Source: a virus
Length of the DNA: 44,878 nt
UHGV virus genome: UHGV-0250870
Strand: one strand, 5' to 3'
Of this stretch, positions 6,001 through 12,000 are shown piece after piece. Position numbers: made by a program. Numbering within the stretch: position 1 is the stretch's first letter; the number at the start of each line of letters is the position of its first letter.

Positions 6001-9000
6001 TTCTGGGTAAAAAACATCATGAGTCCGGCAAAACTCCGGGAAAAATGGGATGAACTGGTTATCCGCCTGGGGCGTTCGCCTGCGCAGCGTTGCGTGAATC
6101 ACATTTCTGAACCGGACACTGAAATACCGCCGGGATTCAGGGGGTGACGTGTCATGAAAAACATTGCGGCAGTTGGGGTTCTTGAACGTATTCGCAGACT
6201 TGCACCACAGGGGTCGGTTCCACCGTACCGGACGGTGGAGGAGTGGCGGGAATGGCAACTTGCTGAAGGACGAAAACGCAGCGAGGAGATTAACCGCCAG
6301 AATCGCCAGTTGCGGGTGGAAAAAATCCTGAATCGTTCGGGCATCCAGCCTCTGCACAGCAAATGCTCGTTTGCAAATTATCAGGTGCAGAACGACGGGC
6401 AAAAATACGCGCTGAGCCAGGCCAAATCCATAGCTGACGAACTGATGACCGGGTGCACGAATTTTGTGTTCAGCGGTAAAACCGGCACCGGGAAAAATCA
6501 CCTTGCAGCGGCGATGGGCAACCGGCTGATGGTGAAGGGGCGCAGCGTGATTATCGTCACCGTGTCTGACGTCATGAGCGTGTTGCATGACAGCTACGAC
6601 AACGGCAAATCCGGGGAAAAATTTTTACAGGAGCTTTGCGGGGTTGATTTGCTGGTCCTGGATGAAATAGGCGTTCAGCGGGAGACGAAAAACGAGCAGG
6701 TGGTATTGCACCAGATAATTGATCGCCGGACAGCATCACTGTGCAGTGTCGGGATGTTAACAAACCTGAATCATGCCGCAATGAGTACGCTTCTTGGTGA
6801 GAGGATTATGGACCGCATGACCATGAACGGTGGTCGATGGGTGACGTTTAACTGGGATAGCTGGCGTCCAAATGTCAGCAATATGAGGGTTGTGAAGTAA
6901 TTTTGTCCGGAGGAAATTTTAATGGAAACCGTATCTGACGCACTGAAAGCACTGAAAAAAGCCTCTTCACATGTGGTGGCAGCTCGCCTTGGAATCAGTC
7001 GTGAAGAGGCTGTCAACGAGCTGTGGGAACTCAAAAGAAAAGGCGTCGTTGATAAAACTGGTCGCACCTGGTTTCTGGCTGGCGAAGGTGAATCCCGGGT
7101 AACCGAAGAGCGGCCAGTAAAATCTGAAGCACAGGATATGCTGACCGGGGAGGTCGAACAAAAAGTTACCGCAGACATGATGATTGAGTTTATCGGTCAG
7201 GATGGGGCTAAAACGTGTGAGGAACTGGCGGGTAAGTTCGGCGTCAGTACTCGCAAGGTTGCCTCCACGCTGGCGGTGGTAACCGCAACGGGGCGGCTGG
7301 CACGCGTTAATCAGAACGGTAAATTTCGTTACTGCATGCCGGGCGATAATTTACCAGCAGAGCCGAAAGCCGCGCTGGTAACGGAAAGTGATGGTAAGGC
7401 CTTTCCTCAGCCAGCAGGTGCTGCGTTACCAGTCCGGGAAGCCGCAACACAGGAAGAAATTAAAACAGAAACTGTGGCGGACATTGTGCAGCCGTTGCCA
7501 TCGTTTACCGAAACGCAAGCAGATGAGCTGATTTTTCCGTCCCTTCGCAGGGCAAACCTGGCGCTGCGCAGGGCGAAAAGTGATGTTCAGAAGTGGGAGC
7601 GAGTCTGCGCCGCGCTGCGGGAGCTGAACAAGCACCGGGATATTGTTCGACAGATTACTGATTCTTCCCGCCGTGTTGTATCGGAAAAGTGATTGCCGGA
7701 GGCGCTTATGGCAAAAGTATTTACACAAGAAGAGCGGGAAAAAATTAAAGGGCAGGTTGTTGAACTTGTACGTCTGAGCGGTCGCGAGACGTTGCGGCAA
7801 CTGGAAGCCAAGACAGGTGCGACAAGATATCTGATAAGTGTTCTCGCCAGAGAGCTGGTTGCCAGTGGCGATGTATACAACTCTGGTTACGGGTTATTCC
7901 CGTCTGAACAGGCGCGTAAGGACTGGCAAAATGCTCGCAAAAAACTCTCAAGGGCAAAGGTGAAGAAACCTGCAGTGGTTGATCCGGACCTTATCTGGTC
8001 GTTACCAGACGGCGAAATACGCCGCTACGACAGGCGCCTGAATATAATCTGTCGCGAGTGCCGGAAGAGCGAAGCTATGCAGCGTGTACTGGCATTTTAT
8101 CAAGGAAATGTTAGGTATTTTAGACGTTACTAGATTAAAGAGCATTAGTTCAGATGTGAATTGACATTTTCATGGCGCAGGGTAGAGCCAGCGTGGTTGT
8201 CCGCTTTGCGTCAAAACCAGATATTACCAGATTTAGACATATATTCCCGATAGCCCTGCTCTGATGCTACACTCTGTGCTATTTTCATGACCCCAATAAA
8301 AATATTTATGACTATTGCTGATTTCAAACGGCCTAAATTGGATCTCCCAAACGGGGCAAACAAACTACTACTGCACTCTTGCTGTGCTCCATGTTCCGGT
8401 GAAGTGATGGAGGCGCTTCAGGCCTCGGGAATCGACTACACCATCTTTTTCTACAACCCGAACATTCATCCTCAGAAAGAGTATTTAATTCGTAAGGATG
8501 AAAATATTCGCTTTGCTGAACAACACGGCGTGCCGTTTATCGATGCTGATTACGACACCGACAACTGGTTTGAACGTGCCAAAGGAATGGAATGGGAGCC
8601 TGAGAGGGGGATCCGTTGTACCATGTGTTTTGACATGCGTTTTGAGCGGACAGCGTTGTACGCTGCTGAAAATGGTTTCAGTGTGATCAGCAGTTCACTG
8701 GGCATTTCACGCTGGAAAAATATGCAGCAGGTTAACGAGTGTGGGCGGCGAGCTGTTGCGCATTATCCGGGTATGGTGTACTGGGATTATAACTGGCGCA
8801 AGCAGGGCGGCTCGTCCCGTATGATTGAAATCAGCAAGCGCGAAAAATTCTATCAGCAGGAATATTGTGGCTGTGTGTATTCTCTGCGCGATACCAATCT
8901 ACACCGCAAATCTCAGGGACGCCCTCTTATCAAAATTGGCCAACTCCACTACGGAAAAGAAGAGAAGGAGTGATTTTATGGATCACCTTTCTGATTGATT

Positions 9001-12000
9001 TCATATTGGCGAGGTGACGTGAGTTAAGTAGAATGGCTGCGGGTGCTTGAGGCTATCTGTCTCAGGCATGAACACTGAAAGGCAGATAGAGAAAAGCCCC
9101 AGTTAACATTTCGCGTCCTGCAAGACGCTTAACATTAATCTGAGGCCCAATCTATGTCTCACAAATGTAGGTTAGCCTCTTACGTGCCGAAAGGCAAGGG
9201 GAAGCAGGCTATGAAGCAGCAAAAGGCGATGTTAATCGCCCTGATCGTCATCTGTTTAACCGTCATAGTGACGGCACTGGTAACGAGGAAAGACCTCTGC
9301 GAGGTACGACTCCGAACCGGCCAGACGGAGGTCGCTGTCTTCACAGCTTACGAACCTGAGGAGTAAGAGACCTGGCGGGGGAGAAATCCCTCGCCACCTC
9401 TGATGTGTCAGGCATCCTCAACGCACCCGCACTTAACCCGGTTCGGCGGGTTTTGTTTTTTTCTGGCATTCTGGTTTACAATTCGCACGTCAGCCTGAAC
9501 ACCTGACACCTGCTGCGCCAGCAGAGAAAACAGATGGCGCACAAAACCAAATTTCACAATTCTGATACCGACCTTGCCATCCGGCATGGGCGGCGTTCAC
9601 ACGCATTTAAAACCGACTGGTACCAACACCCACCATGTACTGAAGAACAGGCCGAATGGCTAATTCATAACTACCGCAGACGCGGATACGAGATTAAGAA
9701 AGCCCTCAGCCTCGATTATCGTCACTGGATAATCTCCGTCAGGCTTCCTTACTCTGAACGCCCACCGCGTCCGTCCCGCACATTCCAGCAACGCATCTGG
9801 AGGTAACGTGCGGGTATTACTTCGACCTGTTCTGGTACCGGAACTCGGGCTGGTGATCGTTAAGCCGGGCCGTGAATCCATGCCGGTATTCCACAATACC
9901 CGGGTACTGGTGGAGCCGGAACCGAAAAGCATGCGTAATCTGCCGTCCGGGGTCGTTCCTGCCGTTCGCCAGCCGCTGGCGGAGGATAAATCATTACTGC
10001 CATTTTTCAGCGACGAACGAGTGATTCGTGCTGCTGGTGGCGCTGGCGCATTGTCTGACTGGTTACTGCGCCATGTTAAATCCTGCCAGTGGCCACACGG
10101 CGATTATCACCACAGTGAAACCGTCATTCACCGTTATGGTACCGGCGCAATGGTGTTGTGCTGGCACTGCGACAACCAGCTGCGCGACCAGACCTCCGAA
10201 TCACTCGGGCAACTTGCTCACCAAAACCTGTTTGCATGGATGATTGACGTCATACGCCATGCAATGAATGGCTCGCAGGAACGGGAATTATCGCTGGCTG
10301 AATTATCCTGGTGGGCGGTCCGCAATCAGGTGGCGGACGCGCTACCGGAAGCGGTATTACGTCGTTCGCTGGGGTTGCGTGCGGAAAAAATCCGCTCAAT
10401 GTACCGTGAAAGCGACATCGTACCGGGAGAGCAGACCGCCACCAGCATACTGAAGCAGCGCACAAAAAATCTTGCGCCGCTGCCTCACGCCCACCAGCAA
10501 AACCCGCCACAGGAAAAGACGGTGGTCAGCATTGCCGTTGATCCGGAGTCACCGGCTCAGTATCTCCAGCGCCAGAAATCACAACGGGAAGAGATGCCTG
10601 TATACACGCGTTGGGTAAAAACGCAGAAATGCATGACGTGTGGCAATCAGGCAGATGATCCGCATCACATCATTGGTCATGGACTGGGAGGGATGGGAAC
10701 AAAGGCTGATGATTTGTTTGTTATTCCGCTGTGCCGTAAATGCCATAGCGAACTACACGCCGGGGTAGAAGATTTTGAAGAAAAACACGGCAGCCAGCTG
10801 TTGTTGCTGATTCGTTTTTTAATGCACGCGAGAAATTCGGGTGTTTTGAAGTGGAAAGCATAAATGACTGAACGCATAGAATTTGTTTTGCCTTACCCGC
10901 CAACGGTGAACACTTACTGGCGTCGTCGTGGCAGCACATATTTTGTATCAAAAGCCGGGGAGCGTTATCGCCGGGCAGTGGCGCTTATTGTTCGCCAGCA
11001 GCGGCTGAAATTAAGCCTGTCCGGAAGGTTGGCAATAAAAATTATTGCAGAACCACCGGATAAGCGCCGCCGTGACCTGGACAATATTCTGAAAGCGCCG
11101 CTGGATGCGCTGACGCATGCGGGGTTGCTAATGGACGATGAGCAGTTTGATGAAATCAATATCGTTCGTGCTCAGCCAGTATCTGGTGGACGTCTGGGGG
11201 TGAAGATTTACCCCATAATGCTTGAAGGGCAGGTCAAAAAATGAAACTGGAAGATTTACCGAAATACTACTTCCCAAAATCCCCCGGCCTGACTGATGCA
11301 TCGGCCTCAACGTCGAAAGATGCGCTGAGTATCACTGATGTGATGGCCGCGCAGGGCATGACACAGAATCGGGCTGAGATGGGGTTTTCTGCGTTCCTTG
11401 GGAAAATGGGCATTAGTATGAATGACAGAGAGCGGGCAACAGAATTGCTGACAGAATATGCACTCAGTCGGTGTGATCGCGTGGCGGCGTTAAGAAAACT
11501 CCCGGCAGAAATAAAACCGGTAGTGATGCGCATTATGGCTTCGTACGCTTTTGAGGATTATGCCCGCAGCGCAGCGAGTAAAAAGCAGTGCCCTTGTTGC
11601 TATGGGGAAAAATTTATTGAAAGCGTAGTTTTTACAAACAAGGTCCAGTATCCGGATGGTAAGCCGCCGGTATGGGCAAAGTGTACGAAAGGTGTGTATC
11701 CGTCTTACTGGGAAGAATGGAAAAAAGTCAGGGAGGTGGTAAAAGTTGCCTGTCCGGAGTGTGGCGGAAAGGGTGAGGTTTCCACCGCCTGTAAGGATTG
11801 CCGTGGGCGTGGTGTCGCCATTCATCGTGAAGAGTCGGTAAAACGTGGTATGCCTGTTATCAGAGACTGCCAGCGTTGTGGTGGTCGTGGCTGTGAAAGA
11901 CTACCATCAACGGAGGCATTTAATGCCATATGCAAAGTGACGAGTGCTATCACGCTTGATACGTGGAAAAAATCAGTGAAACGCTTTTACGATACGTTGG

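Follow-up and report, generated by a model that had tools for sequence, protein, structure and literature searches.

Does the hok gene of this prophage belong to a complete toxin-antitoxin module, or is it a toxin gene that has lost its control elements? The hok/sok family has served as a textbook model since the 1980s–90s, its own paradigm being hok/sok of plasmid R1. In the window, the 44,878-nt stretch of virus genome UHGV-0250870 analysed here, an earlier note had described a hok/sok-type type I toxin-antitoxin locus at 9000–9470, and had named the absence of a sok promoter or of conserved mRNA fold elements as what would point to an orphan or inactive hok. Both were looked for and both are present, and the description holds. 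The segment at 9006–9462 is very probably a hok/mok/sok type I toxin-antitoxin module of the hokD type with all its parts, carried in the nin-like region of a lambdoid prophage of E. coli; what K-12 retains in truncated form as hokD/relF is intact here.

The assignment to the prophage early region is borne out by the gene context, which was read from the window's own ORFs. Replication-type genes with QueH flank the locus on one side and DUF968, RusA, and Q on the other, with a cI-like repressor upstream; such an arrangement marks the delayed-early (nin-like) region of a lambdoid prophage. The FORC_069 locus, which is 100% identical, was dropped as a guide to context: it lacks collinearity over the whole window, and DicF and an IS21 element are placed differently. 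The 100%-identical copy carries the RefSeq annotation hokD.

The toxin is encoded on the plus strand at 9211–9366 as a 51-aa protein, MKQQKAMLIALIVICLTVIVTALVTRKDLCEVRLRTGQTEVAVFTAYEPEE, recognized by ORF calling, Pfam, and comparison with known Hok proteins. It matches PF01848 (HOK_GEF) with 80.6 bits (E = 6.3e-23; cut-off 22) and is identical to K-12 HokD/RelF at 50 of 51 residues, the sole change being I34L, which confirms the near-identity given in the earlier note; with HokW it shares 46 of 51 residues. The Pfam score and the identity to HokD place it among the ~50-aa Hok/Gef toxins, which have a hydrophobic N-terminal helix and a conserved Cys. Its Shine-Dalgarno region, AAGGGGAAG (9196–9204, plus strand), reads AAGGAGAAG in most relatives in the homologue alignment, the core being GGGGA here and GGAGA in most of them.

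An overlapping, mok-like upstream frame had also been noticed, and it can now be specified as the same frame as hok. ORF calling and comparison give a mok ORF of 70 codons on the plus strand (9154–9366), which amounts to a 19-codon N-terminal extension of Hok; its ATG at 9154 lies 57 nt upstream of the hok start and the stop at 9366 is common to both, a layout also seen in mokW/hokW of phage 933W. The mok Shine-Dalgarno, GAGG (9142–9145, plus strand), stands 8 nt before the mok ATG, and both are nearly invariant across 36 homologues. An upstream mok ORF with its own Shine-Dalgarno is present, and translation of hok by way of mok would follow by homology. Three minus-strand ORFs that overlap the locus (9180–9344, 9341–9469, and 9408–9587) were set aside; openness is their sole support, and one of them is a RefSeq “hypothetical protein”.

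The antitoxin is predicted to be an antisense RNA, Sok, of about 71 nt on the minus strand, running from 9162 to 9092. Its limits were transferred by alignment from the sokW feature of 933W (L003, positions 2562–2632), and its 71-nt fold has a z of −4.88. The RNA comprises a single-stranded 14-nt 5′ tail (9162 to 9149), a long hairpin (9148 to 9094), and a U-rich 3′ end, and the mok Shine-Dalgarno and start codon lie within the stretch to which it is complementary. The sok promoter (9169–9197, minus strand) consists of a −35 TTGCCT (9197 to 9192), a 17-nt spacer, and a −10 TAACCT (9174 to 9169), with hexamers and spacing identical to those of 933W sokW; the start at about 9162 falls 6 nt past the −10. 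Judged from sequence, a cis-encoded antisense Sok with its own promoter appears to cover the mok initiation region. The RNA had been expected on the minus strand at 9140–9200; the promoter and the first ~22 nt do lie within that interval, whereas the body of the RNA extends further left.

There is a very remote chance that hok is an orphan lacking an antitoxin RNA, as in relBE-hokD of K-12. A generic sigma-70 scan of 8900–9600 returned no minus-strand promoter, and the Rfam “sok” match falls on the plus strand, not the minus, as an orphan would allow. However, TAACCT matches the consensus at only three of six positions and lies below the threshold of that scan, while the homologous sokW promoter is experimentally validated: hokW is toxic, sokW neutralizes it from its own promoter, and mutation of the sokW −10 (primer YO-421) abolishes antitoxin activity and with it protection (PMC8621323). 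The Rfam match, to RF01794, reaches 120.5 bits (gathering score 59) and spans the full model (positions 1–157) in the hok-sense direction, but the model also matches the sense strand of 933W, where sokW is annotated as antisense. A sense-strand antitoxin, as the plus-strand match might be read, was therefore rejected, since what the model covers is the hok leader, beginning at tac and ending at the hok AUG. As controls, 933W scored 113.5 bits and the R1-type locus 87.2 bits, and RF01794 run on the truncated K-12 hokD gave no match. The K-12 orphan also lacks the segment corresponding to 9041–9196, which is present in the window.

The complete module is further outlined by the hok mRNA. A consensus scan places a candidate hok promoter at 9006–9034 on the plus strand, with a −35 TTGGCG (9006–9011), a 17-nt spacer, and a −10 TAGAAT (9029–9034). 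Position 1 of the Rfam model falls on the predicted mRNA start, at about 9041. From the 5′ end of tac to the T run of the terminator, the full-length mRNA would measure ~420 nt (9041–9462, plus strand), as delimited by Rfam, promoter and terminator scans, and folding. A downstream terminator had been claimed earlier and is indeed found: the terminator scan and the fold give a Rho-independent stem-loop at 9435–9452 followed by a T run to 9462, all on the plus strand.

The 422-nt RNA folds with a minimum free energy (MFE) of −170.8 kcal/mol (z = −6.45), its 5′ end paired with the 3′ region. At the mRNA 5′ end, the translational activator element tac, GGGUGCUUGAGG (9041–9052, plus strand), forms 12 bp (−19.8 kcal/mol) in the MFE structure with the fold-back inhibition element fbi, CCUCAA-C-GCACCC (9416–9428, plus strand), leaving a bulged C at 9422; the alignment of homologues supports both elements. 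The upstream complementary box ucb, CUCUUAC (9177–9183, plus strand), pairs in RNAalifold with the downstream complementary box dcb, GUAAGAG, which lies across the hok stop codon (9363–9369, plus strand). The hok start region (9209–9219, plus strand) forms a helix with 9335–9346 in the coding region in both the MFE and RNAalifold structures, by which the start codon is sequestered. The leader also has a local, metastable-type 5′ hairpin (9041–9100, plus strand; fold z = −4.25), which is the first helix of the Rfam model. Adjoining ucb, UAGCCUC (9173–9179) offers an alternative pairing partner for tac. Near the conserved TACGAA motif, the fold prediction shows no local tRNA-like hairpin (z = 0.61).

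Alignment with related loci had been proposed as the way to find the mRNA fold elements and the sok promoter, and it yielded both. The homologue set (n = 36) was drawn from Escherichia, Kluyvera, Photorhabdus, Pantoea, Citrobacter, phage 933W, and R1-type and IncY plasmids. The R1-type locus was retrieved through its Hok protein; distant-mode blastn against plasmids missed R1 hok/sok. From these 36 sequences, RNAalifold finds tac-fbi and ucb-dcb again, together with the hairpin of the Sok target and the helix at the hok start. In the named structure, 95.9% of cells are paired, compared with 37–46% when the partners are slid, and 23 pairs are changed on both sides, compared with 3–12; none of 500 shuffles reached the observed values. 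Position 4 of tac forms UA with fbi in 23 sequences and CG in 12, a compensatory exchange. The hok-start helix is 97.5% paired with compensatory changes in three pairs, and covariation is also seen in the stem of the Sok-target hairpin. The 7 bp of ucb-dcb are 98.8% paired and essentially invariant, so covariation is uninformative there. For the alternative tac-ucb pairing, 84.5% of cells are paired against 26–50% when slid, and tac position 4 covaries with both partners in a three-way manner, but the MFE of a 3′-truncated hok mRNA is the local 5′ hairpin and lacks this pairing. RNAduplex of long upstream and downstream flanks could not be separated from the noise of shuffles and was replaced by motif-anchored ends and alignment counts.

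Of the known systems, K-12 hokD (relF) belongs to the Qin cryptic prophage. It is ~98% identical to the window locus in its hok Shine-Dalgarno, ORF, dcb, fbi, and terminator, and a DUF968 gene followed by an antiterminator lies downstream in both. Homology to K-12 begins only at ~9197, however; there relBE replaces the leader, and tac, the 5′ hairpin, the mok start, ucb, the Sok RNA, and its −10 are missing. By this sequence comparison, the window locus is the intact, ancestral-type form of K-12 hokD.

With R1 hok/sok (parB), the window locus shares the order of elements, the pairings (tac-fbi, ucb-dcb, and the Sok target), an in-frame mok 57 nt upstream, and a sok promoter at the homologous place, which in R1 reads TTGCGC-17-TATCCT. 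The two differ enough that blastn alignment is impossible, and only 3 of 51 residues coincide by position, the proteins being offset by one residue; in a proper alignment, HokW and R1 Hok are 44% identical (PMC8621323). The Sok/target hairpin of the window is 20 columns (~20 nt) longer than that of R1 and its 5′ hairpin loop is shorter, and the window element resides in a prophage whereas R1 is a conjugative plasmid. Chromosomal loci of the hokC(gef)/mokC/sokC type belong to the same family and are built in the same way, and most of their Escherichia copies also have an in-frame mok, but they share only ~78% DNA identity with the window, occupy the core chromosome, and have a shorter leader (~150 nt) without the extended Sok hairpin.

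The phage relative is hokW-mokW-sokW of Stx2 phage 933W and Sakai prophage Sp5 (Plunkett et al. 1999, annotation AF125520; Takada et al. 2021, PMC8621323). This locus is also carried by a lambdoid prophage, is 92.4% identical in DNA over 409 nt, and contains the same tac, 5′ hairpin, extended Sok hairpin, in-frame 70-codon mok, 51-aa Hok, and fbi. Differences are found at the Hok C-terminus (HokD-like TAYEPEE in the window, VDYESEK in HokW), at several positions of the Sok 5′ tail and mok start, and after fbi, where 933W diverges from the hairpin-and-T-run terminator found in the window. No part of the locus evolves faster than the Sok 5′ tail; on a milder but rather doubtful reading, such fast evolution would prevent cross-talk among several hok/sok copies in one cell. 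The window copy lies in the nin-like region, whereas the 933W copy lies past the tail genes, at the right end of the prophage, and given this other phage position the role of hokW may fail to transfer. Only after excision and circularization of the prophage does the hokW of 933W follow int in the leftward (pL) direction.

A structurally complete locus could nonetheless be functionally silent, a decaying chromosomal copy like the hok loci of K-12, and this is improbable here. Decay is evident in many hok copies: the whole leader is missing from K-12 hokD, and among the homologues tac is lost in L007, foreign DNA follows the hok stop in L016, and fbi is degraded in L045. The window allele itself carries GGGGA in the hok Shine-Dalgarno and I34L, and a passage in bioRxiv 10.1101/2025.08.07.668861 cites chromosomal hokA, hokB, and hokC as reported inactive in post-segregational killing. 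Set against decay are the intactness of all elements in the window, with every conserved pairing satisfied, sok promoter hexamers and spacing equal to those of the functional sokW, and the activity of the close homologue hokW-sokW (PMC8621323). Near-full-length copies occur in 3848 of 5426 complete E. coli genomes, and 446 records carry copies at ≥99% identity, which argues for maintenance rather than decay.

For the complete module, a mechanism can be proposed from homology to R1 hok/sok and hokW-sokW. A weak promoter would give rise to a stable hok mRNA of ~420 nt, in which the tac-fbi and ucb-dcb pairings and the burial of the hok start would prevent both translation and binding by Sok as long as the RNA is full-length. 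Slow 3′ trimming would remove fbi, and the RNA would refold with tac free to pair next to ucb, exposing the mok ribosome-binding site and the Sok target. Sok, short and unstable, would then pair with the mok start region and block mok translation, to which hok translation would be coupled, and the duplex would be marked for RNase III. When the supply of Sok falls, through DNA loss, transcription shut-off, or prophage induction, Hok would be made, an inner-membrane peptide that is expected to collapse the membrane potential.

As with hokW-sokW, the most likely role here would be to help kill and lyse the host and release phage when the prophage is induced; prophage retention is a possible second role. 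Mitomycin C causes a RecA-dependent loss of sokW RNA and the appearance of HokW, and deletion of hokW-sokW halves phage release (PMC8621323). In the window, hok is transcribed in the direction of the prophage early rightward operon, and no terminator-like sites were found between the pR-like promoter (4483–4512) and hok's own terminator. The position of the locus might act as the trigger, read-through at induction against the weak sok promoter shutting off or titrating Sok and so coupling Hok to induction as an early lysis aid, but we consider this rather doubtful.

The window locus is an ordinary copy of a well-known module, which carries annotation in thousands of E. coli genomes and the phage version of which was annotated in 933W in 1999 and characterized in 2021. 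Its value lies in showing how K-12 hokD/relF looked before relBE took over the leader, and in giving the precise position of each regulatory element, among them Sok, which is left out of genome annotation. The locus is also a natural test case for prophage induction switching on a type I toxin; the read-through trigger, if true, would explain the unexplained RecA-dependent loss of sokW (PMC8621323).

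The hok/sok observation that an earlier note placed at 9000-9470 is confirmed, far beyond chance. The Hok ORF (9211-9366, plus strand) encodes 51 amino acids and matches the Hok/Gef family (Pfam PF01848) with 80.6 bits and E = 6.3e-23. Its near-identity to HokD/RelF holds, with 50 of 51 residues shared with the E. coli K-12 protein (the difference is I34L) and 46 of 51 with HokW of phage 933W. The overlapping mok-like frame noted upstream begins with an ATG at 9154 on the same strand, behind a GAGG Shine-Dalgarno sequence at 9142-9145, and runs for 70 codons to the hok stop (9366). 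The mok start lies 57 nt 5′ of hok, and the two are in frame because both end at the same stop, as is also the case for mokW and hokW. A sigma-70-like promoter, TTGGCG-17-TAGAAT, was found by a consensus scan at 9006-9034 (plus strand), and the terminator noted downstream is a hairpin followed by a T run at 9435-9462 (plus strand).

The antisense RNA, Sok, is predicted on the minus strand from 9162 to 9092, as transferred from the sokW feature of 933W (locus L003, 2562-2632, minus strand) through A1, an alignment of homologous hok mRNAs. Its promoter consists of a -35 hexamer TTGCCT (9197 to 9192) and a -10 hexamer TAACCT (9174 to 9169) on the minus strand, separated by a 17-nt spacer. Hexamers and spacing are identical to those of 933W sokW and homologous to the TTGCGC-17-TATCCT of the R1-type locus. 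A generic promoter scan did not pick up this promoter because TAACCT fits only three of six consensus positions. Mutation of exactly this hexamer in sokW, with primer YO-421 replacing TAGGTTAG, abolished antitoxin activity, and sokW RNA was seen on a Northern blot (Takada et al. 2021, PMC8621323). In the fold of the 71-nt Sok (-28.1 kcal/mol, z = -4.88), a free 5′ tail of 14 nt precedes a long hairpin, and the 3′ end is rich in U. Of the antisense RNA, the interval of 9140-9200 first proposed for it contains the initial ~22 nt, along with the promoter; the RNA body reaches left to ~9092.

The Rfam model RF01794, named “sok”, matches 9041-9216 on the plus strand over its full length of 157 positions, scoring 120.5 bits where the gathering score is 59. 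Since it spans the hok mRNA from its 5′ end (GGGUGCUUGAGG) to the hok AUG, the model describes the hok leader rather than the antisense RNA. In 933W the match (113.5 bits) falls on the hok-sense strand, opposite to the annotated sokW. The R1-type plasmid locus matches with 87.2 bits, the Rac-like phage and the IncY plasmid also match, and K-12 hokD gives no match to the model. Automated annotation based on RF01794 would place “sok” on the wrong strand and with the wrong length.

In the minimum free energy fold of the 422-nt full-length RNA, the 5′ end pairs with the 3′ region (z = -6.45). The elements tac (9041-9052) and fbi (9416-9428) form 12 base pairs with one bulged C (-19.8 kcal/mol). 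Conservation was assessed in A1, which aligns 36 distinct mRNAs over the span between tac and fbi; their sources are genomes sampled at one per species, together with phage 933W, a Rac-like phage, an R1-type IncF plasmid, and an IncY P1-like plasmid. RNAalifold recovers tac-fbi, whose column pair 4/427 reads U-A in 23 of the mRNAs and C-G in 12; the essentially invariant ucb-dcb (9177-9183 with 9363-9369); the Sok-target/Sok-stem hairpin with four compensatory pairs; a helix (9209-9219 with 9335-9346) that sequesters the hok start, with three; and a 3′-UTR hairpin. In the named structure 95.9% of alignment cells are paired and 23 pairs are changed on both sides, versus 37-46% and 3-12 when partners are slid. 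Across 500 shuffles, the observed values for percent paired, for pairs and for cells with changes on both sides, and for the covariation score are never reached; the value for further pair types is reached in 5. For the candidate alternative pairing of tac with ucb, which the processed mRNA would be expected to form, 84.5% is paired versus 26-50% when slid, and tac position 4 covaries with both its partners; the minimum free energy fold of the 3′-truncated RNA instead gives a local 5′ hairpin. A sok promoter and conserved folds (tac-fbi, ucb-dcb, and the hok-start helix), whose absence the earlier note named as a refutation, are both present, and the interpretation as a type I toxin-antitoxin locus stands.

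In every clade examined, variation within the locus is highest in the Sok 5′ tail/mok start segment, 9146-9168 (A1 columns 126-150). For the hokD/W clade, on a small sample, mean pairwise difference is 0.275 there, while the hok coding region has 0.05 and the Sok stem 0.03. Such variability would be consistent with selection that keeps the Sok/target pairs of a genome's several hok/sok copies from cross-reacting. All 36 aligned hok mRNAs, R1 included, carry TACGAA (9349-9354) unchanged; its TAC is the codon for Hok Tyr47. This is the TadA-type A-to-I editing motif, and editing would recode Tyr47 to Cys. No tRNA-like local hairpin is predicted at these positions. A-to-I editing of this kind has been reported in hokB, with hokC/D/E mentioned as well (bioRxiv 10.1101/2025.08.07.668861). 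Close relatives differ in the frame of mok relative to hok. The two are in frame (57 nt) in the window, 933W, R1-type loci, and Photorhabdus. A single additional T shifts mok to +1 (58 nt) in the Rac-like phage, IncY plasmids, and Kluyvera, where the shifted frame is still open for 56-69 codons, mostly 68-69. In two Escherichia hokC-like copies mok has 19 codons.

The neighboring genes bear out a prophage early region, more exactly a nin-like delayed-early segment, as for Qin hokD. A cI-like HTH repressor (4150-4449, minus strand) lies by a pR-like promoter (4483-4512, plus strand), followed on the plus strand by a YdaT-family protein, an HTH_36 replication-type protein, a DnaC/IstB-like ATPase, and DUF1627 and DUF977 proteins. 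Immediately 5′ of hok is a prophage-borne epoxyqueuosine reductase homologue, QueH (8287-8973, plus strand; PF02677, E = 1e-65). After the locus come, on the plus strand, a 90-aa ORF, DUF968, RusA, antiterminator Q, a DNA methylase, and three tRNA genes and then two STnc100 sRNA-family copies (136 and 165 bits), the tRNA genes and sRNA copies together occupying 13736-13982 and 14061-14738; this segment is the site where Stx phages have stx. A 59-aa ORF (9408-9587, minus strand; RefSeq “hypothetical protein” WP_001112740.1) overlapping the hok terminator and next gene is probably a spurious call. On the minus strand, an IS21-family element (1810-4061; IstB-like ATPase 1810-2565, transposase 2562-4061) sits between the DicF antisense sRNA region (175-226, minus strand; full-length Rfam match, 76.7 bits) and the repressor gene, and the prophage may be defective.

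By analogy with the family, the full-length mRNA would be stable and closed until slow 3′ trimming removes fbi, and refolding would then uncover the ribosome-binding site of mok as well as the Sok target. Sok, abundant and unstable, would stop translation of mok and hence of hok and guide RNase III cleavage; its loss would lead to Hok synthesis and membrane depolarization. Experiments on hokW-sokW found toxicity, neutralization by sokW, and partial dependence on RNase III and Hfq; upon mitomycin C, RecA-dependent disappearance of sokW and appearance of HokW in the inner membrane; and phage release halved by deletion (PMC8621323). The hok Shine-Dalgarno sequence is GGGGA in the window versus GGAGA in most relatives in A1, and chromosomal hokA/B/C are reported inactive for post-segregational killing (cited in bioRxiv 10.1101/2025.08.07.668861). 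Together with the weak sok -10, these points argue against full activity of the window allele. The hok orientation is that of the early operon. In 933W, hokW lies 3′ of int in the leftward direction only once circularized. From the pR-like promoter to the hok terminator (4483-9435), the plus strand showed no terminator-like site. Early transcription would enter hok sense-wise, against the sok promoter. Such read-through at induction could, we infer, silence or titrate Sok.

Matches occur in 4938 of 5426 complete E. coli genomes (near-full-length in 3848), at a median of two places per genome. Strain FORC_069 carries a 100%-identical copy, labelled hokD by PGAP, in a prophage adjoining ompW. 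Among phage records 102 match, several labelled mokW/hokW/sokW. Several hundred hokD-like plasmid loci (~88% identity) were found, and 476 of 609 matching plasmid records are non-mobilizable. In one example, IncY plasmid L053 (CP122754.1), the locus adjoins repL and phage baseplate genes, neighbors that suggest a P1-like phage-plasmid. E. coli-type hokD, 93-98% identical, also appears in very short contigs assigned to Acinetobacter idrijaensis and to Xanthomonas pisi (L019, L023) and in “Actinobacillus phage vB_Apl-pPE4” (H74), probably through contamination or mislabelling.

Homology of K-12 hokD to the window starts only at ~9197, with relBE upstream. The K-12 copy retains the hok Shine-Dalgarno sequence, ORF, dcb, fbi, and terminator but lacks tac, the 5′ hairpin, the mok start, ucb, and Sok with its -10. 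Decay is seen in further sampled copies: tac is missing from L007, foreign sequence follows the stop in L016, and fbi is degraded in L045. On sequence grounds, the window locus is the intact version of K-12 hokD. The system and the kind of place it occupies were already known, and the earlier note rightly recognized them; the additions here are exact coordinates for Sok and for each of the fold elements, and recognition of the locus as the intact form of K-12 hokD.
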